Of a stretch of DNA of 64,000 nucleotides, positions 8,439 to 56,016 are shown one piece after another. Origin of the DNA: a virus. How positions within the stretch are numbered: the first letter of the stretch is position 1; the number at the start of each line of letters is the position of its first letter. Under the pieces are notes generated by a model. The model worked only from the letters and a program-made list of their open reading frames with translations, was not told where the DNA came from and searched no databases. The stretch lies in the IMG/VR virus record IMGVR_UViG_3300002835_000024. One strand, given 5' to 3'. Made by a program: the position numbers and the translations under genes.

Positions 8439-10004
8439 ATGGACCTGAACTTTTTTGGATTCCGCATAACTAGAGAAGAAAAGCCCGTCGTCTCTTTCGC
8501 GCCAGAGATTAGAGACGACGGAGCTATCATCACAACTGCAACAGGCGGTGCACAAGGTTTTTATATTGACCTTGATGGAAGCGTAAGAAACGAAGCCGAA
8601 GCTGTTGCCAAATATAGAGAAATGGCACTAAATCCAGAAATTGATATTGCTATTGATGATATAGTCAACGAAGCTATTTGTTTGGAAGACGGTCTAGACA
8701 CTGTTAAGTTAAATCTGGATAAACTAGAGCAGCCACCAAAAATCAAAGAACTTATACTGCAAGAATTTCAAACAGTAATGAAAGTCTTAGATTTTAAAAA
8801 TAAAGGCTATGATATTTTCCGCAACTGGTATGTTGATGGGCGTTTGTACTACCATGTTATTATTGACAACAAGAATCCAGCTTTAGGAATTCAGCAACTA
8901 CGTTATGTTGATCCAAGAAAGATTAGAAAAGTTAGACAAGTCAAAAATGACAGAATACAAACAATTCCTATAGCACAAACGGTTGACGAATACTACGTCT
9001 ACAATCCTAGAGGCTTTGGTAAAATTCCAGCTTCTCCAGCTACAGCACCTGTTGATCATGCAGTAACTGGTATTAAGATCACAAAAGATTCAATCGCCCA
9101 TATCACAAGCGGTCTGACTAATACGACTGGAGATCTTGTGATTGGTTATCTTCACAAAGCCATCAAACCATTAAACCAATTAAAGGCTATGGAAGACAGC
9201 CTTGTCATCTATCGTATCTCTCGCGCTCCCGAGCGCAGGATATTCTATATCGACGTTGGCAATCTTCCCAAGATGAAAGCCGAACAATATCTAAAAGATA
9301 TTATGACCAAGTTTAAGAACAAGGTCACATATGATGCCTCGACTGGCGAAGTTCGAGACGAAAGAAAATATATGACAATGCTTGAAGATTTCTGGCTTCC
9401 TAGAAGAGAGGGCGGAAGAGGAACAGAAATCACAACACTTCCAGGCGGTCAAAACCTCGGTCAAATCGAAGACATTCAATATTTCCAAAATAACCTATTC
9501 AAAGCTTTGAACGTTCCAGTTTCTAGACTTGATCCTTCTGCAGTGTATTCTCTGGGAAGGGCTACTGAAATCTCAAGAGATGAAATTAAGTTTACCAAAT
9601 TCATCAAAAGAATGAGAGCTAAATTCTCTGAATTATTCAACGTTCTTCTCGAAAAACAACTGATTCTTCGCGGTATTATGAATGACCAAGAATGGGAAAT
9701 TTTCAAACCATATTTCGAATACATTTTCTTGGACGACAGCCACATGGCAGAAATGAAAGACATTGAGGTTATGAACACCAGAATGAATCTGTTGATGGAC
9801 ATGGATCCATTTATCGGCAAATATTTCTCTCATGAATATGTGAGGAAGAATATCTTAAAACAAACTGAAGAAGAAATAGAACAAGAAAACGAATTGATTG
9901 CACAAGAGATGCAAAATCCTATTCTCAACCCACAATTGTTAGAACAAGAACCGCAGCAAGCACCACCAACAAAAACAAAAGTTCCGAGAAATAAAAAAGC
10001 TTGA
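8439..10004 (+). CDS. gp20: Portal protein gp20
   Basis: WYVDGR, YRISRAPERRIFYIDVGNLP, EDFWLPRREGGRGTEI. Confidence 0.97.
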   Translation: MDLNFFGFRITREEKPVVSFAPEIRDDGAIITTATGGAQGFYIDLDGSVRNEAEAVAKYREMALNPEIDIAIDDIVNEAICLEDGLDTVKLNLDKLEQPPKIKELILQEFQTVMKVLDFKNKGYDIFRNWYVDGRLYYHVIIDNKNPALGIQQLRYVDPRKIRKVRQVKNDRIQTIPIAQTVDEYYVYNPRGFGKIPASPATAPVDHAVTGIKITKDSIAHITSGLTNTTGDLVIGYLHKAIKPLNQLKAMEDSLVIYRISRAPERRIFYIDVGNLPKMKAEQYLKDIMTKFKNKVTYDASTGEVRDERKYMTMLEDFWLPRREGGRGTEITTLPGGQNLGQIEDIQYFQNNLFKALNVPVSRLDPSAVYSLGRATEISRDEIKFTKFIKRMRAKFSELFNVLLEKQLILRGIMNDQEWEIFKPYFEYIFLDDSHMAEMKDIEVMNTRMNLLMDMDPFIGKYFSHEYVRKNILKQTEEEIEQENELIAQEMQNPILNPQLLEQEPQQAPPTKTKVPRNKKA

Positions 10005-18414: not shown

Positions 18415-18969
18415 ATGAAAAAGAAGTCAGGAATACATTACGTAGACAATAAAAAGTTATACGCTGAAATGGTAAAGTTTATCGCAGCATATAGAGAATC
18501 AGTAGCAAACGATACTCCAAAACCAAAGGTGCCAGAATACATTGGAGAAGCCATCATTAAGATAGCTACCAGATTAGCGAACAGACCTAATTTTATCGGA
18601 TACACTTACAAAGAAGAAATGATTGGCGATGGTATTGAAAATGTCCTCGCATACATTCACAATTTTAATCCGGATAAACACAACAATCCGTTTGCTTATT
18701 TTACTATGATCATAAGCAATGCTTTTCTTAGAAGATTGGAAAAGGAAAAGAAACAAACTTATATTAAGCACAAAATGCTGGAAAGAAACTATCTAAATAA
18801 TACGCTAACAGATAATTCAGAAGACGATCCGCACGTTTCGATTGACATCAACACAGATGGAAGACTTGATAATCTTATTAATAGATTTGAGAAGAAACCA
18901 AACAAAAAGAAAAAAGTAAAAGGCCTGGAAAAATTCTTAGACGAAGATGTGACGGATAAAGTCGTTTAA
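18415..18969 (+). CDS. gp55: Late transcription sigma factor gp55
   Basis: HYVDNK, PNF-YTYKEEMIGDG, NPFAYFT. Confidence 0.95.
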   Translation: MKKKSGIHYVDNKKLYAEMVKFIAAYRESVANDTPKPKVPEYIGEAIIKIATRLANRPNFIGYTYKEEMIGDGIENVLAYIHNFNPDKHNNPFAYFTMIISNAFLRRLEKEKKQTYIKHKMLERNYLNNTLTDNSEDDPHVSIDINTDGRLDNLINRFEKKPNKKKKVKGLEKFLDEDVTDKVV

Positions 18970-21800: not shown

Positions 21801-22334
21801 ATGGAGGGTGTGATGGAAGAAATAGAAACGCTATCTTTGGTATCAGAAACAAATCCAATACTTCGTATGAACACAGAAGTGTTTGATTTTAAGAATCCTC
21901 CAACAAATCCTGTTATTTTGTATAGACAGATGGCAAATACAATGCTAAAGAATAATGGTATTGGATTGGCGGCACCACAAGTAGGTCTTCCATATAGAAT
22001 GTTTGTGATGAGAACTCATCCAGACGTTATTGGAGTATTCAATCCACTTTTGCTTGACACTTCCGAAGAAACCATTATACTAGAAGAAGGTTGTCTGAGT
22101 TTTGATATGCTTTTTATTAAAGTAAAAAGACCGAAACGTATTCGGGTTCGTTTTACAAATCCCGACGGGCAAACTGAAACTAGGGTGTTTGATGGTATGA
22201 CGGCTCGTTGTTTTCTTCACGAGTTGGACCATCTTAATGGAATTACCTATCTGCAAAAAGCAAATAAATTTCATATTGAGACCGCCAAGAAAAGACGCAA
22301 ACAAATTAAAGAAGAGAACCAAAGGATTGCATAA
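21801..22334 (+). CDS. def: Peptide deformylase
   Basis: GIGLAAPQVG, EGCLS, HELDHLNG. Confidence 0.93.
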   Translation: MEGVMEEIETLSLVSETNPILRMNTEVFDFKNPPTNPVILYRQMANTMLKNNGIGLAAPQVGLPYRMFVMRTHPDVIGVFNPLLLDTSEETIILEEGCLSFDMLFIKVKRPKRIRVRFTNPDGQTETRVFDGMTARCFLHELDHLNGITYLQKANKFHIETAKKRRKQIKEENQRIA

Positions 22335-23704
22335 TGGTTAAGGTGATTGTTGCAAAAGAGAAACATGACTGTGAACATTTGCTGGGGCAATATTTAGATG
22401 AGAGCCACTATGATATACTTGTACAAGAAGATACTGATTGCTTCATGCCTCCTGATTGTGACCTTGCTACTCAAATGCAATGTGATAAAAATTGCTCAGA
22501 CTGCCCCACAGGAAAGTCAGAAGCCAGAGTAGCATTTAAATTCCGCAAGAATTATTTCAATAAGAAAATGCAAAGAGACGCATACGAGGGTCTGCGCGAA
22601 GCTGCAACTGAATCACAGAATCGTGGTCTAGCTGCTGGCCCAAGAGGTCCGACTCTCAGTGTCGATGGTCGAGGCGGAAGAGATTGGGTCACTGATTATG
22701 AGCTTGAGATTCTAGACTTCTTTATGAATGAGCGCAGTTCTTTGTTTGACAAAGAAGATATTTCTTCAATCAAACAAAAATATGCAAAAAACAAAAGCAA
22801 ATCTGATGAGACACGCGGAACTGTTTGGCTGAGATCTCAGGTCACAAAACGATATCCTGAGTATCATGGCTGGTTTGATGTTTGGGTTGATGAGGTCCAA
22901 AAACTCCCCAGACAAAAACAAATTGCTGAAGCTACTGAGATTGCTACCAAATGGATATCTTTCACAAATTATGCAAAATCAGTATACTCTGGCGTTGCTG
23001 GCTGGTACGATAGATATCCTAGAATTCCTTTCGGAAGAGCGACATCATACACTCGTGATAATCCGGAAAAATTTGCCAAAGCTTTTCCGTTCCTACAAAA
23101 ACTCAATCAGGGTTATAAAGATTTGATGCCTTGGCGCTGGGGCAATCAAAAGGCTGCCTGTGATAAAATTGATAGCAGGTTTCTTGTACCAGAAACAGTA
23201 TTCACAACAATCACTGTGAACAAAAGCTTTAGGACTGCCGCGCATCGTGACGCTGGAGATTTTCAAGACGGTCTTTCAAATCTTCTTACTCTCGGAGACG
23301 GAGAATACACAGGCGGATATCTGATTTTCCCTGAATATCGAATCGCTGTTGATGTTCGCCCAGGAGATCTTCTTCTGGTAAACAATCATGAAATTATTCA
23401 TGGTAATACTGAGATCAAACTTAATTTCCCAGAAGCAGAAAGAGTTTCTATTGTTTGTTATTTCCGAGAAAAGATGTTGGAGCTTGGATCTTGGGAATAT
23501 GAGAGGACAAGAGAACAATATGTAGAGGATCGAAGAAAAAATAAAGATCATCCTCTGCAAAGACCATTGTGGAATGGAATCTCGCCTTCGATGTGGGATG
23601 AAAAAGAATGGTATGATTATTTGACTGACAAACTGGGCAAAAAAACGTTAGAGAAATATCACCCAGAAGCCTTTGTTTCTTCTCTTGATAGTTTCTTCAA
23701 CTAG
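22334..23704 (+). CDS. TET/JBP-family 2OG-Fe(II) dioxygenase (5-methylpyrimidine oxidase)
   Basis: HRD (HxD), GGYL-FPEY, HGNT, RVSIVCYFR signature; Cys-rich N-terminus. Confidence 0.8.
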   Translation: MVKVIVAKEKHDCEHLLGQYLDESHYDILVQEDTDCFMPPDCDLATQMQCDKNCSDCPTGKSEARVAFKFRKNYFNKKMQRDAYEGLREAATESQNRGLAAGPRGPTLSVDGRGGRDWVTDYELEILDFFMNERSSLFDKEDISSIKQKYAKNKSKSDETRGTVWLRSQVTKRYPEYHGWFDVWVDEVQKLPRQKQIAEATEIATKWISFTNYAKSVYSGVAGWYDRYPRIPFGRATSYTRDNPEKFAKAFPFLQKLNQGYKDLMPWRWGNQKAACDKIDSRFLVPETVFTTITVNKSFRTAAHRDAGDFQDGLSNLLTLGDGEYTGGYLIFPEYRIAVDVRPGDLLLVNNHEIIHGNTEIKLNFPEAERVSIVCYFREKMLELGSWEYERTREQYVEDRRKNKDHPLQRPLWNGISPSMWDEKEWYDYLTDKLGKKTLEKYHPEAFVSSLDSFFN

Positions 23705-23861
23705 GTTTTATAAATATGTCTACGATTAAACGTTGGGTGATTCTTGTTGTGTTTGTTTTACTCATATATCCTTTTTTAATCTTTTTTCATACAGGAATTT
23801 AAAAATAAACTTATAAATATTACTTAGCCGTTTTGTTTTTTATTTTTTCGGAGTATTTTCC

Positions 23862-24098
23862 ATGACAATTCTGAACAGGATTCTGGGCGCGTTTCAAAGA
23901 GCAAAAGATGATATTAAAAATCCATACACTCCGAGAAATGGCAGATTTTCAGCAGCTCAACAGATTGGGATGTTCTTAGATCCAGAAATGTTAAGGGGAA
24001 ACCGCCCAGTTCCAGGAACTTCTGAAGCCGAAAGAGATGCTAGAGAATTTCACAGATTGCAGAGAAATACAAACCGGAGGAGCAGACCACGAGGATAA
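23862..24098 (+). CDS. Small basic hypothetical protein preceded by late promoters (23709-23716, 23812-23819)
   Basis: GGAG RBS; two upstream TATAAATA. Confidence 0.55.
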   Translation: MTILNRILGAFQRAKDDIKNPYTPRNGRFSAAQQIGMFLDPEMLRGNRPVPGTSEAERDAREFHRLQRNTNRRSRPRG

Positions 24099-24117
24099 GA
24101 AATAAGGAATTTATATC

Positions 24118-24825
24118 ATGTGTTCTGTTATTGGGGCGTTTTTTGATCACCCATCAAAAAAACAATTGACTCTTCTGAAAAACGTTTTCATCGAATCTAA
24201 AATAAGAGGAATGCACGCAACAGGCATTTCTTATATTCAAAACAACGAAATTATAACAATAAAAAAACCAATTCCGTCTGACGAGTTCTTCAAAGATGTC
24301 GATTTTGAAGACCATTTTATCAATGAAGACGGCAATCTATACATGATTGGGCATTGTCGATATTCTACCTCAGACCTAGAATATAATCAGCCAATCTATA
24401 ATGATGACATTTCTATTGTTCACAATGGTGTGATCACACAGGAACTTCCAGAAAACTGGAAGTCCATTTACGACATTGTGTGTCAAACTAAAAACGATTC
24501 AGAATTTATTCTAAAGACTCTTGAGCAGAAAAAAGAACCTCTTTCTGCTTGGCCTGATACGTCTATGGCGGTTTGTGAATTATATTCTGACAAAAAGATT
24601 CGTTTTTATAGAAACGCTAAAAGACCGTTAACAATGGCTGTGTTTAATAATGGTGTTATTGTTTCTTCTACAAAAGATATTTTAAAAAGAGCGAATACAG
24701 TTGAAGAAGATTTTATAACGCTTGATTGTGACATGAATGTCATATATACTATAGATAGTCAAAGATTCCAAATTTCTAATGAGTTGATTTCTACGAACAG
24801 GAAAGATTTACAGTATGAATTATGA
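24118..24825 (+). CDS. Class II (Ntn) glutamine amidotransferase
   Basis: N-terminal MC, RG-HATG, GHCRYST, HNGVI, DSE. Confidence 0.85.
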   Translation: MCSVIGAFFDHPSKKQLTLLKNVFIESKIRGMHATGISYIQNNEIITIKKPIPSDEFFKDVDFEDHFINEDGNLYMIGHCRYSTSDLEYNQPIYNDDISIVHNGVITQELPENWKSIYDIVCQTKNDSEFILKTLEQKKEPLSAWPDTSMAVCELYSDKKIRFYRNAKRPLTMAVFNNGVIVSSTKDILKRANTVEEDFITLDCDMNVIYTIDSQRFQISNELISTNRKDLQYEL

Positions 24826-25690
24826 TCCTAAGAGTTTTACTTGGGGGTATGAAATAGAGTGGGGTGATATTGATCGTAGGCTGAATATTCCGGAACATCT
24901 CGGAAAATGGGAATATGCCGAAACAGATATTGTCAATATCAGAGAGCCATACAAATATATTGCTTGTGATCCATTGGGCCTTGATCCTCCTTTTGGTGGA
25001 GAAATCAACACAAAGCCCACTAAAACCTGGCAAGAGCAGGTTGATCGCATTATGGAAATTTATGAGCTCTTTGTTAAAAACGGCAACCAACCATCAGCAT
25101 CATGCGTCAACCACGGTCATCTTCACGTTTTTGTTCCTGGGCTGAAAAATGATATCGAAGGTCTAAAAAATCTAACCAAATATATTCGTCGAAATCAAAA
25201 AGAGACTATAGCTGCTTGTTATAGATTCTATGACGGATATAATATGAAAAAACTCAAAAACGCCACAACATATCTAAAGTTTGACGGTGGCCGAGAAATG
25301 CCAGATTATATGTGTAGCAACATTATAAATTTGGCGAAAGACTTCGACACTTTTATCAAATTGCAATGCGCAGGTAAAGATGGTATATCTATGGGTCGCC
25401 CACTTAGATACGCTATCAATACGTATTGTATGAAACATACAGGTACTATTGAGTTTAGATGTTTTCGTTCTACAACTAATAGATTGGAAATTGAATCTCA
25501 GTTTAAATTTGTAGAAAGATTTATTGACGCTGCTTTGAATAACGGACCAGATGTTTGGGAAATTTTAGCAGATGTTAGTTTAAAGTTCCCAGAATTCAAC
25601 TGGGATGATCTGGAATATGAAGGTTGGATTAAGACAAAATATGACAAATCACGCGGAGAGAAAAAACGCGAATTCCATGAAGTTGCGTAA
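24815..25690 (+). CDS. Amidoligase (COOH-NH2 ligase, Amidoligase_2-like)
   Basis: TWGYEIE, GEINTKP, HGHLHV, GTIEFR. Confidence 0.78.
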   Translation: MNYDPKSFTWGYEIEWGDIDRRLNIPEHLGKWEYAETDIVNIREPYKYIACDPLGLDPPFGGEINTKPTKTWQEQVDRIMEIYELFVKNGNQPSASCVNHGHLHVFVPGLKNDIEGLKNLTKYIRRNQKETIAACYRFYDGYNMKKLKNATTYLKFDGGREMPDYMCSNIINLAKDFDTFIKLQCAGKDGISMGRPLRYAINTYCMKHTGTIEFRCFRSTTNRLEIESQFKFVERFIDAALNNGPDVWEILADVSLKFPEFNWDDLEYEGWIKTKYDKSRGEKKREFHEVA

Positions 25691-26222
25691 GACTTCCAAA
25701 GAAGAATTCGTTCGCCATATTACCGACAAAAAAGAAGATAGATTCGCCAAGACTTTTGTGGCAAAGGCTAATATGCAGGATATCTGGGACAACTGTTATG
25801 GGTTGTGGCTAGAAGAAGATCTTTGTGGTGCTATAATCACAACAGTGTCCAAGAATTACCCCAAGATAATGAATCTTCAATTGCTGCACACATTTCATAA
25901 ACACAGAGGCTCAGGTGTTGGAAAGAAACTCTGTCAGTGGGCTTTGCAAAAAGCTGTTGATGATGGGGTGAATTACTTCAGAGTTTCAGCTGAGCCAGAT
26001 GCTGTTTTGTTTTATGAGAAATGTGGATTTGTATTTCAGGGTAGACAAAAATCAAATAGCCAACTTTCTATTTTTCGCATAATAGATAATAATTTTTCAA
26101 ACGGCGATTATTCTATCTCTGATCCTATCATAAACAAAGCAGTTTACAGAAAAGGCAAAGGTGGATGTGTAGAAGTGTTTGTTAAGTCTGAACAATCTGA
26201 TTTGGAAAAATTCTATGGATAG
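25677..26222 (+). CDS. GNAT acetyltransferase
   Basis: HRGSGVGKKL acetyl-CoA motif, AVLFYEKCGF; probable start ATG 25677. Confidence 0.85.
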   Translation: MKLRKTSKEEFVRHITDKKEDRFAKTFVAKANMQDIWDNCYGLWLEEDLCGAIITTVSKNYPKIMNLQLLHTFHKHRGSGVGKKLCQWALQKAVDDGVNYFRVSAEPDAVLFYEKCGFVFQGRQKSNSQLSIFRIIDNNFSNGDYSISDPIINKAVYRKGKGGCVEVFVKSEQSDLEKFYG

Positions 26223-27219
26223 CAGAGAGCTCTTTATTCGATGGTATGCATGGTCTCTGGAATATAAAGATTGTGATCCTTCTGTTTGGATGACAAATTA
26301 TCTTAATAAAAGATATCAGCATAATGACGAGGAAAGAATATGGCTTTGCTGGCTTTATGGTAACACATATTATCTTCCGACATCATGGGTGTTAAAGAAT
26401 GAGTTTCCCGATTATGAGTTGGCTACTGTAGATAGAATAACAAAATGGAACAACACCAACTATAAAAGACTTAGATATCAAACAGACACAAAATACAATA
26501 AAGGCCATTTGCCTTCTATGTTTGAGTCTTACCAAAAATATTTTGGAAACAAATTGCAAAGAGATGTATTAGAATCATTATACTCTGACAATGAAAAACA
26601 AAATTTCGATAATATATGGAATTCTGTAAATAAAAACTTCTATAAGTTTGGGAGATATACAACATGGTTTTATCTTCAACATCTTAAACATACCGCAGGA
26701 ATAAAAATAGAACCAACATCACTAATGCTGTCAGATTATTCTGGGAGTAAATCACACAGAAATGGTTTGTGTTATGCTCTAAGCAAACAAGATTGGATAA
26801 ATAATAAACTTACTGAGAAAGAATATCAGTGGCTGCAAGCAAAGAGCGACGATATTCTAATTGAAATGAGACAAAGATTTCCTCAGTTGTCCTCACAATT
26901 AGATTATTTTACTATGGAAACATGTCTCTGTAGTTTTAAGAAAATATTCAGAGAGAATTCTTCTAGATATTTGGGATATTATCTCGATAGACAAGCTGAA
27001 GAGATATCTACTGTTTCTTCTGATAGTTGGAACGGGATAGACTGGGACGTTTTGTGGCAAGCTCGAAAAGAAACTATTGATAAAAAGCTTGACAAACGCA
27101 CAGGAATAGACAAGAATAGGTTTGGCGAATACCTGAAGACTGGTTCCATTGATAGAGTAGAGTGGATGTTTAAAGATTCCGTTAAAAAAGATATTGGATT
27201 GGAGATGTTTTTCGCATGA
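26215..27219 (+). CDS. Alpha-glutamyl/putrescinyl-thymine pyrophosphorylase-like (aGPT-Pplase, amino acid:DNA transferase)
   Basis: DCDP, WL-WLYG-TY, FGRYTTWFYLQ (HhH-like), ETCLC-FKK, RYLGYY; adjacent kinase. Confidence 0.72.
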   Translation: MDSRELFIRWYAWSLEYKDCDPSVWMTNYLNKRYQHNDEERIWLCWLYGNTYYLPTSWVLKNEFPDYELATVDRITKWNNTNYKRLRYQTDTKYNKGHLPSMFESYQKYFGNKLQRDVLESLYSDNEKQNFDNIWNSVNKNFYKFGRYTTWFYLQHLKHTAGIKIEPTSLMLSDYSGSKSHRNGLCYALSKQDWINNKLTEKEYQWLQAKSDDILIEMRQRFPQLSSQLDYFTMETCLCSFKKIFRENSSRYLGYYLDRQAEEISTVSSDSWNGIDWDVLWQARKETIDKKLDKRTGIDKNRFGEYLKTGSIDRVEWMFKDSVKKDIGLEMFFA

Positions 27220-27752
27220 AAGTTATTGCTATATTTGGAGAGCCAGGCAGCGGTAAATCCACCCTGATGAATGAATTGATGGCGCGTATTGGGATCTCAA
27301 GAGAAGTCAAAACTGATTTCAAACTTGTGCCATATCATCAAAAAGAAAATATCTATATTCTCGGTAAATATGAAGTCGGAGAAGTTTTTGGTGGGACTGA
27401 TAAAATGTCTATGGCTGTTCAGCCAGAAGCCATAAAATTTCTTGCTAGTTTAGATGATAATTCAGTTGTTCTTTTCGAAGGCGATAGGCTATGCACTTCG
27501 TCTTTTCTTGATCACTGCAACGATAAATATAATCTGACGATGGTATATCTCTCCACGTCAAAATCAATCCGTACAGAAAGATTTAAAGAACGAAACAGCA
27601 ATCAAGATGAAACTTGGTTGAAAGGTCGTGAAAGCAAAATCAATAATATACTTTCTAATCTTAATCTTAAATTCATTACTGAAATCTTTGAGAACAATAA
27701 AAGAGAGGATTCAGAAAAAATTATAAACTTTATCATGGAAAAAATTAAATGA
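27216..27752 (+). CDS. P-loop nucleotide kinase (5-hmU DNA kinase-like)
   Basis: GEPGSGKST, LGKY, GGTD-SM, EGDRL. Confidence 0.75.
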   Translation: MKVIAIFGEPGSGKSTLMNELMARIGISREVKTDFKLVPYHQKENIYILGKYEVGEVFGGTDKMSMAVQPEAIKFLASLDDNSVVLFEGDRLCTSSFLDHCNDKYNLTMVYLSTSKSIRTERFKERNSNQDETWLKGRESKINNILSNLNLKFITEIFENNKREDSEKIINFIMEKIK

Positions 27753-28135
27753 CACCAGTTGAGAAATGGTACTTGAGAAAAAATTCTGACATAGAGAATG
27801 GCGGCGTCAAATACGATAAAGATAAGCCGCCGATGGATCTTATACCCACAGAAGCTTTGTTTGAAGTCGCTGAAATATTAAAATTCGGGGCTGAAAAATA
27901 TGAGCCATACAATTGGGCCAAAGGTATGGCGTATTCGAGACTCACTGCGGCGGCACTGAGACATATCTTCAAATTCAATTCTGGAGAGGATAATGATCCT
28001 GAAACTGGGAAATCTCACATTTCCCATGCCATTTGTTGTCTTCTCTTCTTAGCAGAATACGAAAAACGGAAAGAACATTATGAGTCTTTTGACGATAGAT
28101 TTGATTGGAATACAAAAAAGACTAAAAACGCTTGA
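27749..28135 (+). CDS. DUF5664 dATP/dGTP diphosphohydrolase-like protein
   Basis: GVKYD-DKP-DLIP, GAEKY-NW-KG, D-DPETG-SH-HA. Confidence 0.82.
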   Translation: MTPVEKWYLRKNSDIENGGVKYDKDKPPMDLIPTEALFEVAEILKFGAEKYEPYNWAKGMAYSRLTAAALRHIFKFNSGEDNDPETGKSHISHAICCLLFLAEYEKRKEHYESFDDRFDWNTKKTKNA

Positions 28136-28182: not shown

Positions 28183-29073
28183 ATGGAATCCCAAACAAAA
28201 ATGAACCTAGAGGACGGATCTCTCAAGATCGAAGTCCCAACAGAAGTATTGAAAAATAGAAAACTATTTGTTGCCACTCCAATGTATGGCGGACAATGCG
28301 CGGGAATGTTTGCTCGATCGATCGCAGACCTTTCCGCTCTTTGTCAGAAATACGGAATTCAGCTGAGACTTTATTTCCTATTCAACGAGTCTCTGATTAC
28401 TCGAGGTAGGAACTACTGTGCTGACGAATTCATGAGGTCTGGTGACACCCACCTAATGTTCATCGACTCGGATATCGGCTTCAATGCCAACGATGTTATC
28501 GCTCTTCTTGCTCTGCAATCAGAGAATCCAGAGGAAGATGAATATGATATTCTCTGCGGCCCATATCCTAAGAAGTGTATCTCTTGGGAGAAAATTAAAC
28601 AAGCTGTTGATAAAGGATTCGCGGATCAAGATCCTAGCGTCCTAGATCGATTTGTTGGCGATTATGTCTTCAATCCTGCTAACGGTAAGACTGAAATTTC
28701 TCTTACCAAACCAGCGGAAATTCTTGAGGCTGGTACAGGCTTCATGATGATTCGACGCAATACTTTTGAGAAGTTTGCTGAGGCTTACCCACAGCAATCT
28801 TATAAACCAGATCACGTAAGAACTGAACACTTTGACGGTTCTCGTGAGATCATGGCGTTCTTCGACACGCCAATTGATCCTGAATCCAAACGCTATCTGT
28901 CAGAAGATTATATGTTCTGTCAGTGGTCTAGGAAAATTGGACTGAAGGTTTGGCTGTGCCCATGGATGCAGCTGAAGCATGTTGGTTCATATATATTTGG
29001 CGGTTCTCTTGTTGATCTTGCCCAAATCGGTGCTGCCGCAACGGCAGACGTAAGCAAACTAAAGAAAAAATAG
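28183..29073 (+). CDS. GT-A-fold glycosyltransferase-like protein
   Basis: VATPMYGG, SLITRGRN, FIDSDI (DxD), GTGFMMI, LSEDY. Confidence 0.6.
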   Translation: MESQTKMNLEDGSLKIEVPTEVLKNRKLFVATPMYGGQCAGMFARSIADLSALCQKYGIQLRLYFLFNESLITRGRNYCADEFMRSGDTHLMFIDSDIGFNANDVIALLALQSENPEEDEYDILCGPYPKKCISWEKIKQAVDKGFADQDPSVLDRFVGDYVFNPANGKTEISLTKPAEILEAGTGFMMIRRNTFEKFAEAYPQQSYKPDHVRTEHFDGSREIMAFFDTPIDPESKRYLSEDYMFCQWSRKIGLKVWLCPWMQLKHVGSYIFGGSLVDLAQIGAAATADVSKLKKK

Positions 29074-29086
29074 GAGTATTTTTATT

Positions 29087-29749
29087 ATGAAACTTTCCAA
29101 AGAAACCCTTGGAGTTCTTGAGAACTTCTCTTCTATCAACCCAGTTATCCTTGTTCGAAAGGGTAAACAACTCAGGACTATTTCTCCTTCAAAGGCTGTT
29201 TTTGCAGTTGCTAATGTTGAAGAAGAGTTCGATCGTCAGTTCGCGATCTTTGATCTTAAGAAGTTTATTGGTTGTCTTTCTCTGTTTGATTCTCCAGATC
29301 TAGAATTCAATGACAAGTTCGTGAATATTTCAGAGGATGATCAACAACTGTCTTATTATTTTGCTGATCCAGAACAAATCTCGTCAGCAGCACCAGAAAA
29401 AACAATCAATCTTCCTTCTGAAGATGTTGAATTCAAACTGCTGGCCAAAGATTTCCAGAAGATCGTGAAGGCTATGTCTGTTGCTGGTCTGTCCAACATC
29501 TCTGTTGTTGGTGATGGATCTAACCTTATGCTTAAAGCTCTCGATCCAGAAGGAAAAACTAATGATGCCTTCACGATCAATATCGGCAAAACTGATATGA
29601 AATTCAAGGCAGTTTTCCGAGCAGAGAATCTTAAGATGCTTTCTGATGACTACGATGTTGTTATCTGCTCTAGGGGTATCGCAAGTTTCACAGGGAGCAA
29701 AGTGAAATACTTCATTGCTACTGAGGAAAAGTACAGCAAGTTTCAATAA
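29087..29749 (+). CDS. gp45: Sliding clamp gp45
   Basis: MKLSKETL-NFSSIN, FAIFDL-F, YFIA-E. Confidence 0.92.
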   Translation: MKLSKETLGVLENFSSINPVILVRKGKQLRTISPSKAVFAVANVEEEFDRQFAIFDLKKFIGCLSLFDSPDLEFNDKFVNISEDDQQLSYYFADPEQISSAAPEKTINLPSEDVEFKLLAKDFQKIVKAMSVAGLSNISVVGDGSNLMLKALDPEGKTNDAFTINIGKTDMKFKAVFRAENLKMLSDDYDVVICSRGIASFTGSKVKYFIATEEKYSKFQ

Positions 29750-29789: not shown

Positions 29790-30731
29790 ATGATTATGTC
29801 TAGAGATATTCTTTTTGTAGAAAAATATCGCCCACGTCGAGTGCAAGATTGCATTCTTCCAGAAAAACTTAAAAGTGTATTCCAAAAATTCGTTGATGAT
29901 AAACAAGTTCCCAATCTTATTTTGGCGGGATCTTCCGGTACAGGTAAAACCACAATCGCAAGAGCCATGCTTGAAGAAATTGGTTGCGACTATATTATCA
30001 TCAACGGATCGCTCAATGGTGGCATTGATACCCTGAGAACTGATATCACCAACTTTGCTTCTTCTGTTTCTCTGACAGGTGGAAGGAAGTATGTGATTCT
30101 TGATGAGGCCGATTATCTGACAAACTCAACTCAGCCTGCTCTTCGAAACTTCATGGAAGAGTTCTCTAAGAACTGTGGGTTTATTCTGACCTGCAACTAC
30201 AAAGATAAGATCATAGCTCCTCTTCATTCTCGCTGTTCTGTTGTTGACTTTAAAATCAGCAAAGAAGAGAAAGATGTTCTGGCAAAACAGTTCTATAAGC
30301 GCGTAGTAGATATTCTCAAGAAAGAAAATATCGAAGCTGAAAAGGGCGCTGTTGCTGGGGTTATCGTTAAGTTTTTCCCTGATTGGAGGCGAGTTCTTAA
30401 CGAGATTCAACTTTATTCTGCTACTGGTAAAATCGACTCTGGCATCCTGGCCAATCTACAGGATGTCAGTCTTTCTCAACTTGTTGGGTTTATCAAAAAC
30501 AAAAACTTCAGCGCAATGAGGAAGTGGGTTACCGAATCAGATATTGATGGAATTGCTTTGTTCCGTTCTTTCTATGATAAGGCTGATGACTATCTCACTA
30601 AAGAATCTATCCCCGCTCTTGTTCTTTTGATTGGCAAATATCAATACCAACATTCTTTCGTGGCGAATCCTGATATCAACGTTGCTGCGTTCTTTACCGA
30701 GGTTATGGTTGAGTGCTCTTTCAAGGAGTAG
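29790..30731 (+). CDS. gp44: Clamp loader large subunit gp44
   Basis: VEKYRP, GTGKTT, ILDEAD, SRC, FPDWRR. Confidence 0.95.
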   Translation: MIMSRDILFVEKYRPRRVQDCILPEKLKSVFQKFVDDKQVPNLILAGSSGTGKTTIARAMLEEIGCDYIIINGSLNGGIDTLRTDITNFASSVSLTGGRKYVILDEADYLTNSTQPALRNFMEEFSKNCGFILTCNYKDKIIAPLHSRCSVVDFKISKEEKDVLAKQFYKRVVDILKKENIEAEKGAVAGVIVKFFPDWRRVLNEIQLYSATGKIDSGILANLQDVSLSQLVGFIKNKNFSAMRKWVTESDIDGIALFRSFYDKADDYLTKESIPALVLLIGKYQYQHSFVANPDINVAAFFTEVMVECSFKE

Positions 30732-30737
30732 ATAAAT

Positions 30738-30923
30738 ATGGATGTCCTTGCTTCGTTAAGAAGATGTAATATTTGCAAAGACAGAAGACCCAAAGATTCA
30801 GCCAAAATTATTCTTGAGGCTGTTGATGGGAAAAAGACTCTTAGAGTTTGCTCGAAATGCGAGAAGATTCTAGAGTTATCAAACAGAGCAGCATACGGTG
30901 ATCATGATGAGCGCGAGAATTAG
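30738..30923 (+). CDS. Small CxxC...CxxC hypothetical protein
   Basis: GGAG RBS; CNIC and CSKC. Confidence 0.5.
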   Translation: MDVLASLRRCNICKDRRPKDSAKIILEAVDGKKTLRVCSKCEKILELSNRAAYGDHDEREN

Positions 30924-31296
30924 TCCTTGGGATTTTACCAATAGTATCAATCTAAATAAAAACGACTTGATGGAAGAAGATCCTTCCCTCGAGAAAGATT
31001 ATCTGCCATTTATAGTTAACGCAAGTTTATCATATTTTCCGGATACGATTGAGTATGCGAATATGATGAACATGAACCACCATCTAGACAACAAACTTCA
31101 ATATTCTTTTTACCTAAATAGTGTCAGACCCAAGAAACGTTTCAGTAAATGGGCTAAGAAAATTGACGACGAGAATCTTGATGCTGTGGTAAAGTATTTC
31201 GGGTATAATCGAACTAAAGCTAAAGAAGTTATCAAGCTACTGTCGCCAGAACAAATAGAAGAGATAAAAATAAAAAATGAAGGCGGTGGAGTTTAA
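30898..31296 (+). CDS. gp62: Clamp loader small subunit gp62 (true start probably 30904/30907)
   Basis: Y-PFIVN-LS, QY-FYLNS-RPKKRFSKW. Confidence 0.92.
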   Translation: MIMMSARISPWDFTNSINLNKNDLMEEDPSLEKDYLPFIVNASLSYFPDTIEYANMMNMNHHLDNKLQYSFYLNSVRPKKRFSKWAKKIDDENLDAVVKYFGYNRTKAKEVIKLLSPEQIEEIKIKNEGGGV

Positions 31297-40611: not shown

Positions 40612-43095
40612 ATGGGAAGTTTTTACACAAACGTTTCTAGAAAGGGTAACGATCTTCTCGTGAGAGGATTCGACTCCAACGGAAATCGTTTCAACCGAAA
40701 GGTTAAATACCAGCCATATCTTTTCATACCCTCTCAAACAGAGGATAAATTCAAGACCATTGAAGGCAAATCTGTCTCCAAGATTGAATTTGATTCGATG
40801 TCTGAAGCCAGAGAATTCCTGAAGCAATATGAAGATGTTGCTGGTATGGAAATCTATGGCTTCACTGATTTTATCTACGCTTATATCAACGACAGATACA
40901 AGTCCCAGATATCCTATGATCCTTCTCTGATCAGAACAGTGTTTATCGACATCGAGGTTTCCTCTGCTGGAGGATTCCCAGACATTGCAACTGCAGACAA
41001 GCCGATTACAGCCATCACTATTTCTTGGCGTGGGCGCAAACATGTGTTTGGTCTGAGAGACTTCAAGCCCCACAAAGACAATGTGATATACTATCACTGC
41101 AAAGACGAAGAGACTCTGCTGGCGAAGTTCCTGACTTATTGGCAGGAAATATCGCCAGATTGTGTTACAGGCTGGAACGTAGAGTTCTTCGATATTCCGT
41201 ATATCATCAACAGAATCAAAGCGGTCTTTGATGACGCCCAAGCTGCCAGGCTTTCTCCCTGGTTTCTCTTGAGAGAATACGAAGTTGAGATCAGAGGTAA
41301 GATGAACAAGGCTTACACTCCTGTTGGCATCAACGTTCTCGATTACATTAACCTGTACAAGAAGTTTACCTACTCTCAGCAAGAGTCTTATACTCTCAAT
41401 CATATATCGTATGTCGAGCTTGGTGAGAAGAAGGTTGACTATTCTCAGTATGGTTCTCTTAATGATTTGTATGAGAAGAATCACCAGCTGTTCATTGAAT
41501 ATAACGTCAAAGACGTTGAGCTTGTTGAGCGCCTAGAAGACAAGATGAAACTGATTGAGCTTGTCTTTGCCATGGCTTATGATGCCAAGGTCAACTTCGA
41601 AGATACTCTTGGTTCAGTTAAGCAGTGGGATGTTATCATCCACAACTATCTGCTTTCTCAGAATATTGTTGTCCCACAATTCAAGAAAAAGCCAAACTCT
41701 GAAATCGTTGGTGGCTACGTCAAAGAGCCTGTCATCGGAATGAGCAAGTGGGTCGTCTCAATGGACTTCAAGAGTCTGTATCCCCACCTGATCATGACCT
41801 ATAACATCTCGCCAGAAACTCTAGCTGGCAAAGTTGACAGATTCTATTCTGTTGACGAACTCTTACAGAAGCAGTTCGAGCACGATGGCCAATACAGTTA
41901 CTGCGCCAACGGAACCTATTACTCTAAAGATAAGCAGGGGTTCCTTCCTTATCTTATGCAGAAGATGTATAATGATCGCGCTGAAGCCCAGAAGCAGCTT
42001 AAGCAAATCAAGAAGCAATATAACGATACAAAAGATGAGAGTTTGCTGAAGCAAATATCCGCTCTCAACAACAAGCAGATGGCCAAGAAGATTCAGCTGA
42101 ACTCAGCTTACGGTGCTCTTGCCAATATGTATTTCCGTTGGTTCAATGCTGATATTGCCGAGGCTATCACCCTTTCTGGTCAGCTTGCCATTCGTTGGGT
42201 TGAGACGAACGTCAACAGATATCTCAATGGTATGTTCAAGACCAAAAAAGATTATGTCATTGCGGTTGATACCGATTCAAACTATATCACCCTCGAGAAA
42301 TTGGTTGAGCAATATCAATCTTTCTCCAAAACCGATGATGTGAAAAAGATCGTTGATGTGATTGATAAATTCGTTGAGAGTAAGCTGAAGCCTTTCATTG
42401 ATTCAGCTTGCCAAGATCTCCACGAATATATGAATTCTTATGAGCAAAAGCTTGTTATGAACCGAGAGGCTATCGCAGATAAAGGTATCTGGAAAGCCAA
42501 GAAGATGTATATCCTGAACGTTCTTGATCAAGAAGGCGTTCGTTACGATTCCCCCAAGCTAAAGATGATGGGCATCGAGGCGATCAAATCCTCAACTCCA
42601 ACTTCCTGTAGACAGAATCTCAAGAAGGCATTTGAGATTGTCATGAATCAAACAGAGGGCCAACTCCAGCAATTCGTTGCTGACTTCAAGAGTCAGTTTT
42701 CTAGTTTGCCGTTTGAAGAGGTTGCGTTCCCTCGAGGTGTCAAGGATATCGAAAAGTGGGAAGGCAAGAACGGAAACTATCTTTCAGGAACACCAATCCA
42801 CGTCAAAGCCTCTATGGCGTTCAATGCTATTGTTGATGATCTTGGTCTTCAGAATAAATATGAGAAGATCGTCTCTGGTTCCAAGATCAAATTCTGTTAT
42901 ATGAGAACTCCCAATCGCTACAACATACAGGTATTGGGGTGTCCATCAACAATGCCAGACGAATTCAAGATGCAGAAACACATAAACTATGACATGCAAT
43001 TTGATAAGGGCTTCATTGAACCGCTACGCAGTATCACCGAAACCATTGGCTGGAATATCGAGAAGCTCTCAACCCTCGAAGATTTTTGGAATTAA
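40612..43095 (+). CDS. gp43: DNA polymerase gp43 (family B)
   Basis: DIEV exonuclease motif, DFKSLYP, K-LNSAYG, DTDS, KKMY. Confidence 0.98.
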   Translation: MGSFYTNVSRKGNDLLVRGFDSNGNRFNRKVKYQPYLFIPSQTEDKFKTIEGKSVSKIEFDSMSEAREFLKQYEDVAGMEIYGFTDFIYAYINDRYKSQISYDPSLIRTVFIDIEVSSAGGFPDIATADKPITAITISWRGRKHVFGLRDFKPHKDNVIYYHCKDEETLLAKFLTYWQEISPDCVTGWNVEFFDIPYIINRIKAVFDDAQAARLSPWFLLREYEVEIRGKMNKAYTPVGINVLDYINLYKKFTYSQQESYTLNHISYVELGEKKVDYSQYGSLNDLYEKNHQLFIEYNVKDVELVERLEDKMKLIELVFAMAYDAKVNFEDTLGSVKQWDVIIHNYLLSQNIVVPQFKKKPNSEIVGGYVKEPVIGMSKWVVSMDFKSLYPHLIMTYNISPETLAGKVDRFYSVDELLQKQFEHDGQYSYCANGTYYSKDKQGFLPYLMQKMYNDRAEAQKQLKQIKKQYNDTKDESLLKQISALNNKQMAKKIQLNSAYGALANMYFRWFNADIAEAITLSGQLAIRWVETNVNRYLNGMFKTKKDYVIAVDTDSNYITLEKLVEQYQSFSKTDDVKKIVDVIDKFVESKLKPFIDSACQDLHEYMNSYEQKLVMNREAIADKGIWKAKKMYILNVLDQEGVRYDSPKLKMMGIEAIKSSTPTSCRQNLKKAFEIVMNQTEGQLQQFVADFKSQFSSLPFEEVAFPRGVKDIEKWEGKNGNYLSGTPIHVKASMAFNAIVDDLGLQNKYEKIVSGSKIKFCYMRTPNRYNIQVLGCPSTMPDEFKMQKHINYDMQFDKGFIEPLRSITETIGWNIEKLSTLEDFWN

Positions 43096-55719: not shown

Positions 55720-56016
55720 TTGATGATGAGTCTCGATAAGTTTTTCGATATAGATGTTGCTGAAAAACAAAGACGTATATGTGTAGCTCTGTGGGCTTGG
55801 GCTTATGAGCAGCATTCAGATTCAATTGTCTCAGACGCTAAGTTTGACGACACCTGCAAAAGAATAGACACAAGTATTGAAACTGGCAACATTCTTTTGG
55901 ATAATTTTTTCAAAAGAGAATTTAGCCCCCATACTGGACAATGGGTACATAAGCATCCTGAGAAACACAAACTAGAAGCTTTATATCAAAGATTGAGAAA
56001 GACGAAAAATGGTTGA
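55720..56016 (+). CDS. Stand-alone protein resembling the N-terminal (Ia) domain of NAD-dependent DNA ligase
   Basis: AYE...IVSDAKFD pattern, F-P-TG-W. Confidence 0.5.
   Translation: MMMSLDKFFDIDVAEKQRRICVALWAWAYEQHSDSIVSDAKFDDTCKRIDTSIETGNILLDNFFKREFSPHTGQWVHKHPEKHKLEALYQRLRKTKNG

Follow-up and report, generated by a model that had tools for sequence, protein, structure and literature searches.

We investigated the C-termini of DNA-modification enzymes encoded in a 64,000-nucleotide stretch of viral DNA (IMG/VR record IMGVR_UViG_3300002835_000024; "the window" below), which is part of an uncultured T4-like phage. The DNA polymerase of this phage, gp43, terminates in a short peptide that recurs at the C-termini of three unrelated enzymes of the modification cluster: a TET/JBP-type 5-methylpyrimidine dioxygenase (5mYOX; "TET" below), a GNAT acyltransferase and an amino-acid:DNA transferase (ADDT; previously called aGPT-Pplase). 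On comparative grounds this peptide is likely to be a binding epitope for the gp45 sliding clamp, and clamp tethering is the best explanation for it; base modification is probably carried out from the clamp on newly copied DNA. The dioxygenase (456 amino acids; 22334..23704, + strand) ends in VSSLDSFFN (tail SSLDSFFN at 23678-23701), the GNAT (25605..26222, + strand) in QSDLEKFYG (SDLEKFYG at 26196-26219), the ADDT (26179..27219, + strand) in DIGLEMFFA (IGLEMFFA at 27193-27216) and gp43 (40612..43095, + strand) in LSTLEDFWN (STLEDFWN at 43069-43092). All four tails share one exact register, with leucine at position -6, an acidic residue (D/E) at -5, phenylalanine at -3 and an aromatic residue at -2. 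The GNAT and ADDT gene starts are uncertain by a few codons (the true GNAT start is probably at 25641-25677, and the probable ADDT start is the ATG at 26215), which leaves the tails unaffected. The first-pass annotation of this DNA had quoted these four C-termini and had described the glutamine amidotransferase (GATase), amidoligase and kinase of the cluster as lacking the motif; we found all four tails where it had placed them, and the endings of the three other enzymes in the window are indeed without it.

The pattern L[DE]xF[FWYL]x$ matched 4 of the 279 open reading frames (ORFs) of at least 50 amino acids on both strands of the window, and these were TET, GNAT, ADDT and gp43 only. The motif core occurs 9 times in the 20,062 residues of the window gene set. 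From this frequency, 0.044 carriers would be expected in the terminal register (P for at least 4, ~1.5e-7), and composition shuffles gave a mean of 0.012 carriers and a maximum of 1. Could the resemblance nevertheless be functionless, arising by chance or as a DNA-level by-product of duplicated gene ends or cassette junctions? A duplicated gene end does occur elsewhere in the genome (the uvsX / inserted ORF tail DELEEVYEEEE). However, four carriers were observed against about 0.04 expected, homologs sharing 54-98% identity retain the tail despite divergent linkers, and independent lineages carry different motifs. The 21-nucleotide tail-coding sequences are also identical at only 7-12 of 21 positions, and their Leu and Phe codons differ, which rules out a DNA repeat as the origin of the tails and argues for selection on the peptide. 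We regard this explanation as effectively refuted.

Other occurrences of similar sequences in the window were considered. The C-terminus of gp47 (..LDKFLEEL) was rejected as a sixth instance of the motif, since the corresponding region of its homologs is a conserved helix that lacks the motif (LESKIIELY, etc.), and an internal MLEDFW in the ORF at 8439-10004 is not terminal and was taken as chance. A 98-amino-acid ORF without a family match (55720-56016) contains two internal motif cores, SLDKFFD (residue 5) and LLDNFFK (residue 60); judged from its sequence, the protein may be a small clamp binder, or the cores may be there by chance. None of the four tails has Q at the position required by the eukaryotic/archaeal PIP box, Qxx[LIVM]xx[FY][FY]; they are not members of that class, though they may work in a PIP-box-like manner.

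The proposed docking partner, gp45 (29087..29749, + strand; Pfam PF09116, gp45-slide_C; PHROG 223, E 1.8e-69), aligns over its full length with the clamps of RB69 (1b77/1b8h, E 9e-21) and T4 (1czd). It is followed by the clamp loader genes (29790..31296, + strand), gp44 at 29790-30731 and gp62 at 30898-31296, in the gene order annotated in phages DLP_6 and Cr30. The phage thus encodes both a cognate clamp and its loader. In T4, the C-terminal hydrophobic-acidic peptides of gp43, gp55 and gp33 bind gp45, are interchangeable and are borne on divergent unstructured linkers, and the RB69 clamp has been crystallized with the 11 C-terminal residues of its polymerase (1b8h; PMC2988020). From these precedents we infer that gp45 is the docking site for the dioxygenase, ADDT and GNAT tails. 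As read from the sequences, the T4 tails are ..KASLDFLFG for gp43 and ..SLDFLYEAND for gp55, and SLDFLFG in T4 gp43 has the same register as the window tails, with L at -6, an acidic residue at -5, a hydrophobic residue at -3 and an aromatic residue at -2. The late sigma factor gp55 of the window (18415..18969, + strand) had also been listed as a motif match. The motif is present, with GLEKFLD at 18922-18942 followed by an acidic tail, and G[VIL]EKF is kept in most of 34 gp55 homologs. It is not terminal, however: the C-terminus reads ..KGLEKFLDEDVTDKVV, with KGLEKFLDE nine residues before the end. In T4, the C-terminal segment of gp55 is a clamp-binding epitope (PMC2988020).

The link between tail and clamp rests on sequence identity, and C-terminal hydrophobic tails can be degrons. 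The tail might instead bind another common partner (a replisome or nucleoid protein, or a chaperone), or serve as a protease degron or capsid-targeting signal, with gp43 merely sharing it. Against this, the polymerase C-terminal tail is the clamp-binding element in both T4 and RB69 (1b8h; PMC2988020), the gp45 of the window aligns full-length with the RB69 clamp, gp55, an established clamp client, bears the motif too, and tails appear only in phages encoding a gp45-type clamp. We consider such a partner or signal unlikely, and clamp binding remains our preferred reading.

To follow the motif across relatives, we used two sets of metagenomic IMG/VR loci. The first comprised 80 TET-anchored loci, with TET homologs of 54-98% identity. 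The second comprised 78 GNAT-anchored loci carrying the whole GATase-amidoligase-GNAT-ADDT-kinase cassette; a GNAT search with a single sequence had given 4 loci, and the 78 were obtained with an alignment query. The loci are mutually related, so that the counts below do not represent independent observations; independence lies at the level of the several motif variants and lineages. In the first set, 57 of 61 unique TET homologs end in L[DE]x[FLMYW][FWYL], located 0-2 residues from the end, and every one of the 61 has at least a looser form of it. In the second set, the strict pattern was found in 28 of 32 unique TET homologs. The five motif columns of the TET alignment contain 4.1, 3.2, 1.9, 3.4 and 3.7 bits, compared with 0.9-2.7 bits in the 25 preceding linker columns, where the highest values directly precede the motif; the motif itself is consistently placed 0-1 residues from the C-terminus, and the linkers switch among unrelated types (KYHPDAF.., DPYGKDE.., EDGVVGV..). 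Among ADDT homologs, which extend down to ~25% identity, a G[LI]ExF-type tail was found by the loose pattern in 30 of 33 unique sequences of the first set; in the second set, 41 of 49 unique sequences matched the loose pattern and 33 of 49 the strict one.

We then asked how far the motif is restricted to particular genes. With the strictest pattern, the first set gave matches in gp43 (7/7), TET (58/78), ADDT (8/44), GNAT (1/13) and gp44 (1/41), and none in homologs of the PHROG-1574 protein (54 sequences), gp45, gp46, gp47, uvsW, pdf, gp62 or regA. The motif was absent from all of the 400+ GATase, amidoligase, kinase, gp45, gp46, gp47, uvsW and pdf genes of this set. It was present in 25 of 832 other genes, most of them directly after the TET gene; a sample of ten included six TET-associated glycosyltransferases (TAGT, PF20691), two group-1 glycosyltransferases (GT1), two members of a second GNAT-like family and one protein without a match. 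In the second set, the strictest pattern matched none of 1955 other six-frame ORFs.

The family assignments of the tailed enzymes are supported by profile matches and structural models. The dioxygenase matches Pfam PF12851 (E 3.6e-26), and its 2-oxoglutarate/Fe(II) residues H304, D306 and H356 (HxD...H) are invariant in an alignment of 62 TET sequences. An AlphaFold2 (AF2) model built from that alignment had a predicted local distance difference test (pLDDT) score of 83.9, and its top Foldseek matches were CcTet, human TET2 and Naegleria NgTET1 (E about 1e-9). The profile, catalytic residues and TET-like fold together place the protein in the TET/JBP family. The GNAT matches PF13673 (E 1.2e-11) and was modeled with an alpha/beta core at a pLDDT of 90.6. 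The ADDT matches PF18724 (E 4.2e-19) with 69.6 bits, compared with a curated cutoff of 26.2. The TET tail lies in the lowest-confidence block of its model, the last, with a pLDDT of about 50, and the last nine GNAT residues score <50 after a fold of >90. This low confidence lies outside confident folds, and the TET and GNAT tails behave in the models as terminal linear motifs rather than parts of the folds.

If the enzymes share a docking site with the polymerase, their tails might follow the tail of the cognate polymerase, and such a relationship was seen. In relatives of the window, gp43 ends in [ST]LEDFF(x), and on most contigs of the clade this tail accompanies enzymes ending in ..L[DE]xFF. 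In the L156/L161 relatives, gp43 ends in ..[ST]LEDLFT, TET in ..SSLEDLF or ..SSLADLF, and ADDT in ..GLEDLFG. In two further related contigs, gp43 is split into two or three pieces with stops between them (L095/L097 in G025; L096/L098/L099 in G015), either because the gene itself is split or because some element intervenes. Other phages gave a similar picture. Caulobacter phage Cr30 has ..ADLSSLFD on gp43, ..SDLSKLF on a TAGT-like protein and ..GATLF on TET. In Stenotrophomonas phage DLP_6, the motif is found in 3 of 1053 ORFs, namely gp43 (..ATLDSFFA), TET (..ATLGDFFV) and TAGT (..SDLSSFFN). The gp43 and TET tails are ..TLEDFFG and ..SLEEFFV in phage C48C1, and the polymerase and TET tails of Methylophilales phage Melnitz are ..TLEDFFG and ..NLNDFLGE.

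Beyond this clade, we followed ADDT homologs in cultured phages. In Vibrio phage D506, 5 of 214 genes end in [KR][KR]LW: those for the DNA polymerase, a 5-hydroxymethyldeoxyuridine (5-hmdU) DNA kinase (HMUD2, PF18747), the ADDT, an HMUDK_hel protein (PF18723) and a 99-amino-acid protein. The last (L110:15591-15890, PHROG 4789) is the sole non-enzyme gene there with the polymerase tail (..KRLW), and is perhaps a candidate small clamp client analogous to gp33. In Vibrio phage VPALA, STAKRLW is the common ending of the ADDT, an HMUDK_hel protein and a DNA methyltransferase (PHROG 757). The last DNA-polymerase ORF of this phage (L103; record 85757-86785, minus strand) ends in ..ETNAKR followed by TAA, TGG and TAA, i.e., AKR-stop-W-stop, as though a stop had taken the place of the Leu codon in the polymerase, where the three neighboring modification enzymes end in AKRLW; this could reflect read-through, a mutation of recent origin or an error in sequencing. 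In the Ackermannviridae phage SKML-39, a tail of the LLxxMxKKG type is found in 3 of 869 ORFs, those for the DNA polymerase (..NLLAMMQKKKG), the 5-hmdU DNA kinase (..SLLDLMKKG) and the ADDT (..NLMALLKR). SKML-39, VPALA and D506 each have a gp45-like ORF. No gp45 match was found in Mycobacterium phage Bane1 or Glutamicibacter phage Montesquieu, and the ADDTs of these phages end in unrelated sequences; tails are also absent from the TET homologs of HTVC112P and P12024L, both small phages. Thus, LEDFF, LEDLF, LSxLF, KRLW and LLxxMxKKG are each common to the polymerase and modification enzymes of one phage, and, apart from the two exceptions given below, the tail follows that of the cognate polymerase.

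Several observations weigh against the proposal that the tails tether these enzymes to the clamp. The gp43 tail ..LEDFFG coexists with ..LEDLFE on TET in L067, and ..IDDFFG on gp43 with ..LDSLWD on TET in L078. Strict position-by-position co-variation with gp43 therefore holds in the LEDLF clade and Cr30 and fails in these two cases, and we claim co-variation at the level of motif class only. A few ADDT homologs, and the ADDT of Cr30, lack the tail. The P-loop kinase has no tail in the clade of the window although it probably acts on DNA. In the second set, the GNAT tail was found in 5 of 52 homologs by the strict pattern and in 16 of 52 by the loose one. Finally, T4 promoter swaps suggested that the balance of alpha- versus beta-glucosylation is not chiefly set by contact between alpha-glucosyltransferase and gp45, and that this contact is minor for the level of modification (PMC13216743); because that contact had little effect, the tether may be helpful rather than essential. 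Conservation of the motif in homologs, the check that the first-pass annotation had proposed, thus bore out nearly all TETs and most ADDTs, with the GNAT tail in a minority. The comparative support for its central claim, that modification enzymes are tethered to the clamp, is strong, comprising conservation of the TET and ADDT tails, restriction of the motif to gp43 and modification enzymes, co-variation, absence from clamp-less phages and predicted disorder.

On the contig that carries L067 (TET) and L092 (gp43), the two tails are ..EKISTLEDLFE and ..EKISTLEDFFG. They agree at all eight residues that precede the aromatic pair, and the sequence match hints at tail transfer between the two genes.

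About half of the GNAT homologs stop right after a conserved ..KGKGGCVEVF, which is the last beta-strand of the fold in the model. Since about a third of homologs at best have a tail, the tail is dispensable for the family and gives little information on its substrate. The earlier prediction that the GNAT acts on DNA is therefore possible, with the facultative tail as weak evidence for it.

The tail-less enzymes of the cluster were similarly compared. The GATase (24118-24825, + strand) was identified by profile matches as a class-II glutamine amidotransferase, the amidoligase (24815-25690, + strand) by a weak match to PHROG 2443, and the kinase (27216..27752, + strand) as P-loop nucleotide kinase 3 (Pfam PF18751, E 3.9e-13). 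The strictest motif was absent from homologs of the GATase (0/27 in the first set and 0/61 in the second), the amidoligase (0/15 and 0/77) and the kinase (0/43 and 0/63). Another count of the second set gave the motif in 0 of 36 GATases, 0 of 42 amidoligases and 0 of 37 kinases. Many homologs of the GATase have a conserved ending of their own, of the type ..(E)DLQ, which is unrelated to the clamp motif. Judged by gene context, the job of the P-loop kinase is likely to be phosphorylation of 5-hydroxymethyluracil (5-hmU) in DNA. The kinase of this clade is never tailed, whereas the 5-hmdU DNA kinases of D506 and SKML-39, which belong to another family (PF18747), bear the local polymerase tail. 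Hence, the presence of a tail is informative and its absence is not, and the earlier suggestion that the GATase and amidoligase may make a soluble donor because they are tail-less does not follow.

Tethering could work as follows. The seven-residue tail of TET, ADDT and, in this phage, the GNAT ([ST/G]-L-[DE]-x-F-[FWY]-x) would be a copy of the clamp-binding epitope of gp43. The gp44/62 loader would place gp45 trimers on replicating phage DNA, and these clamps, with three peptide-binding sites each, would remain on the duplex. Modification enzymes hooked on by a flexible linker would be carried along new, unmodified phage DNA, and tethering would raise their local concentration, allow one-dimensional scanning and restrict them to replicated phage DNA. 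There, the dioxygenase would oxidize thymine (possibly 5-methylcytosine) to the hydroxymethyl base, the P-loop kinase would phosphorylate that base (5-hmU to a phosphate ester), and the ADDT would exchange the phosphate for an amino acid or amine. The GNAT, GATase and amidoligase would either provide the donor or tailor the product. As judged from the gene content, thymine is a more likely substrate of the dioxygenase than 5-methylcytosine, given its linkage to the kinase and ADDT genes and given that family assignments revealed no C5-methyltransferase among the cluster genes.

Binding of the tails to gp45 might also serve mainly as regulation, either through competition that times replication, late transcription and modification or through allosteric activation on loaded DNA. 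The three sites of the gp45 trimer are shared by gp43, gp55, gp33 and the loader (PMC2988020), and some TETs of ParB-less clade C1 phages are inactive alone in E. coli (PMC13229309, PMC8256090). Late-promoter boxes also lie inside the cluster: two T4-type TATAAATA boxes (23709-23716 and 23812-23819, + strand; consensus matches) fall in the 157-nucleotide gap between the TET gene and the ORF at 23862-24098. This box occurs 17 times in the window, compared with 3.7 expected, and 16 of the 17 copies are on the + strand. As matches to a consensus, the positions of the two boxes fit expression of the tailoring genes in replication-coupled late transcription. On the other side, the tailed enzymes represent four or five unrelated folds, a diversity easier to reconcile with delivery than with a specific allosteric switch, and nothing in the present data separates regulation from simple tethering. 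We consider a mainly regulatory role improbable, and we favor tethering.

We conclude that the tails probably mark these enzymes as new clients of an established docking mechanism, one that is apparently general across clamp-encoding phages with hypermodified DNA. A broader proposal is possible, and we advance it tentatively, as something we would not yet expect to hold. In it, the sliding clamp would be a general hypermodification platform, obligatory for some enzymes. Throughout the clamp-encoding lineages examined, which span four motif classes, oxidases, kinases, transferases, glycosyltransferases and methyltransferases would each have gained the local polymerase tail to form a tool-belt assembly line on gp45, and gp45 of T4-like phages would play the T-dioxygenase-activating role that falls to ParB in clamp-less phages. 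Activation by gp45 would explain why some ParB-less clade C1 TETs are inactive when expressed alone in E. coli.

The genes described here lie on the + strand in the order uvsW, gp55, gp47, gp46, peptide deformylase, modification cluster, gp45, gp44, gp62 and regA, with gp43 later. A DNA search for near-identical sequence of the modification cluster found no match among cultured phages. After the TET gene, the tailoring genes are headed by a small basic ORF (23862-24098, + strand). Between the kinase and gp45 are two genes identified by profile matches, for a dATP/dGTP diphosphohydrolase N-domain (27749-28135) and a 296-amino-acid PHROG 1574 protein (28183-29073). The latter lies immediately upstream of gp45 not only in the window but also in DLP_6, in Cr30 and in most of the related loci. 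Many of its close relatives, including those in DLP_6 and Cr30, have basic ends (..ATAD...KKK), distant ones end in ..VANYVGSL, and the clamp motif is never present.

If the proposal is correct, it provides a spatial logic for hypermodification, in which clamp-riding enzymes would act only on fresh phage DNA, leaving host DNA and free nucleotides untouched. DNA-acting modification enzymes in metagenomic phage contigs could then be picked out by a simple sequence rule, namely that they share the polymerase's tail. There may also be a practical consequence. Several TETs have been inactive in heterologous tests (PMC8256090, PMC13229309); in heterologous reconstitutions, the enzymes were expressed apart from their cognate clamp and loader, and some of the purified ones were C-terminally His-tagged (PMC8256090). 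Co-expression of gp45/44/62, together with a free C-terminus, is a possible remedy. We found no published report of clamp-type tails on these modification enzymes. Such tails are not mentioned in the principal studies consulted, which deal with phage TETs, glycosyltransferases, thymidine hypermodification and T-dioxygenases (PMC8256090, bioRxiv 10.1101/2023.12.21.572611, PMC8989533, PMC13229309), two of which note only gp45 or clamp-loader genes in the neighborhood.

The closest parallel is with gp43, gp55 and gp33 of T4 and RB69, whose clamp-binding peptides are likewise short, hydrophobic-acidic and located at the C-terminus or close to it, with a variable unstructured linker and a cognate gp45 nearby. 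The difference lies in the carriers, which here are TET/5mYOX, ADDT and GNAT (in relatives, also TAGT and GT1) rather than a polymerase or transcription factors, and whose binding is predicted from the shared motif. In eukaryotes, the maintenance DNA methyltransferase DNMT1 is recruited to PCNA by a PIP box, and it too is a DNA-modifying enzyme coupled to replication by a short clamp-binding peptide. Its peptide differs, being of the form Qxx[LIM]xx[FY][FY] and internal or N-terminal, and it involves another clamp family and a different modification, methylation.

T4 itself offers a precedent for contact between a modification enzyme and gp45. T4 alpha-glucosyltransferase co-purifies with gp45 in the pull-down described in PMC13216743, which repeats that of Sommer et al. 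2004 as cited there. It is likewise a post-replicative DNA-modifying enzyme that contacts the clamp, and its gene is also located in the 55-47-46 / 45-44-62 module. We looked for a canonical tail at the C-termini of the T4 alpha- and beta-glucosyltransferases and found none (the alpha enzyme ends in ..EQFDIITK). Thus, the T4 enzyme has no polymerase-like terminal motif, whereas the motif described here is explicit, terminal and common to several enzymes of one pathway.

A further comparison is with the ParB-dependent T-dioxygenases (PMC13229309). T-dioxygenases associate with GATases, P-loop kinases and ADDTs, as the TET/JBP dioxygenase does here, and relatives of the ParB accessory protein form DNA-sliding clamps. 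A ParB gene adjoins the dioxygenase in the clamp-less phages HTVC112P and Bane1. No ParB was found in the window by BLAST, and no ParB_N match above the family cutoff was found in five near-complete T4-like genomes with tailed TETs. The tethering proposal suggests that ParB and gp45 may be alternative DNA-sliding platforms for one enzyme family. In contrast to the ParB system, the accessory proposed here is the replicative clamp, which would be reached via a terminal peptide.

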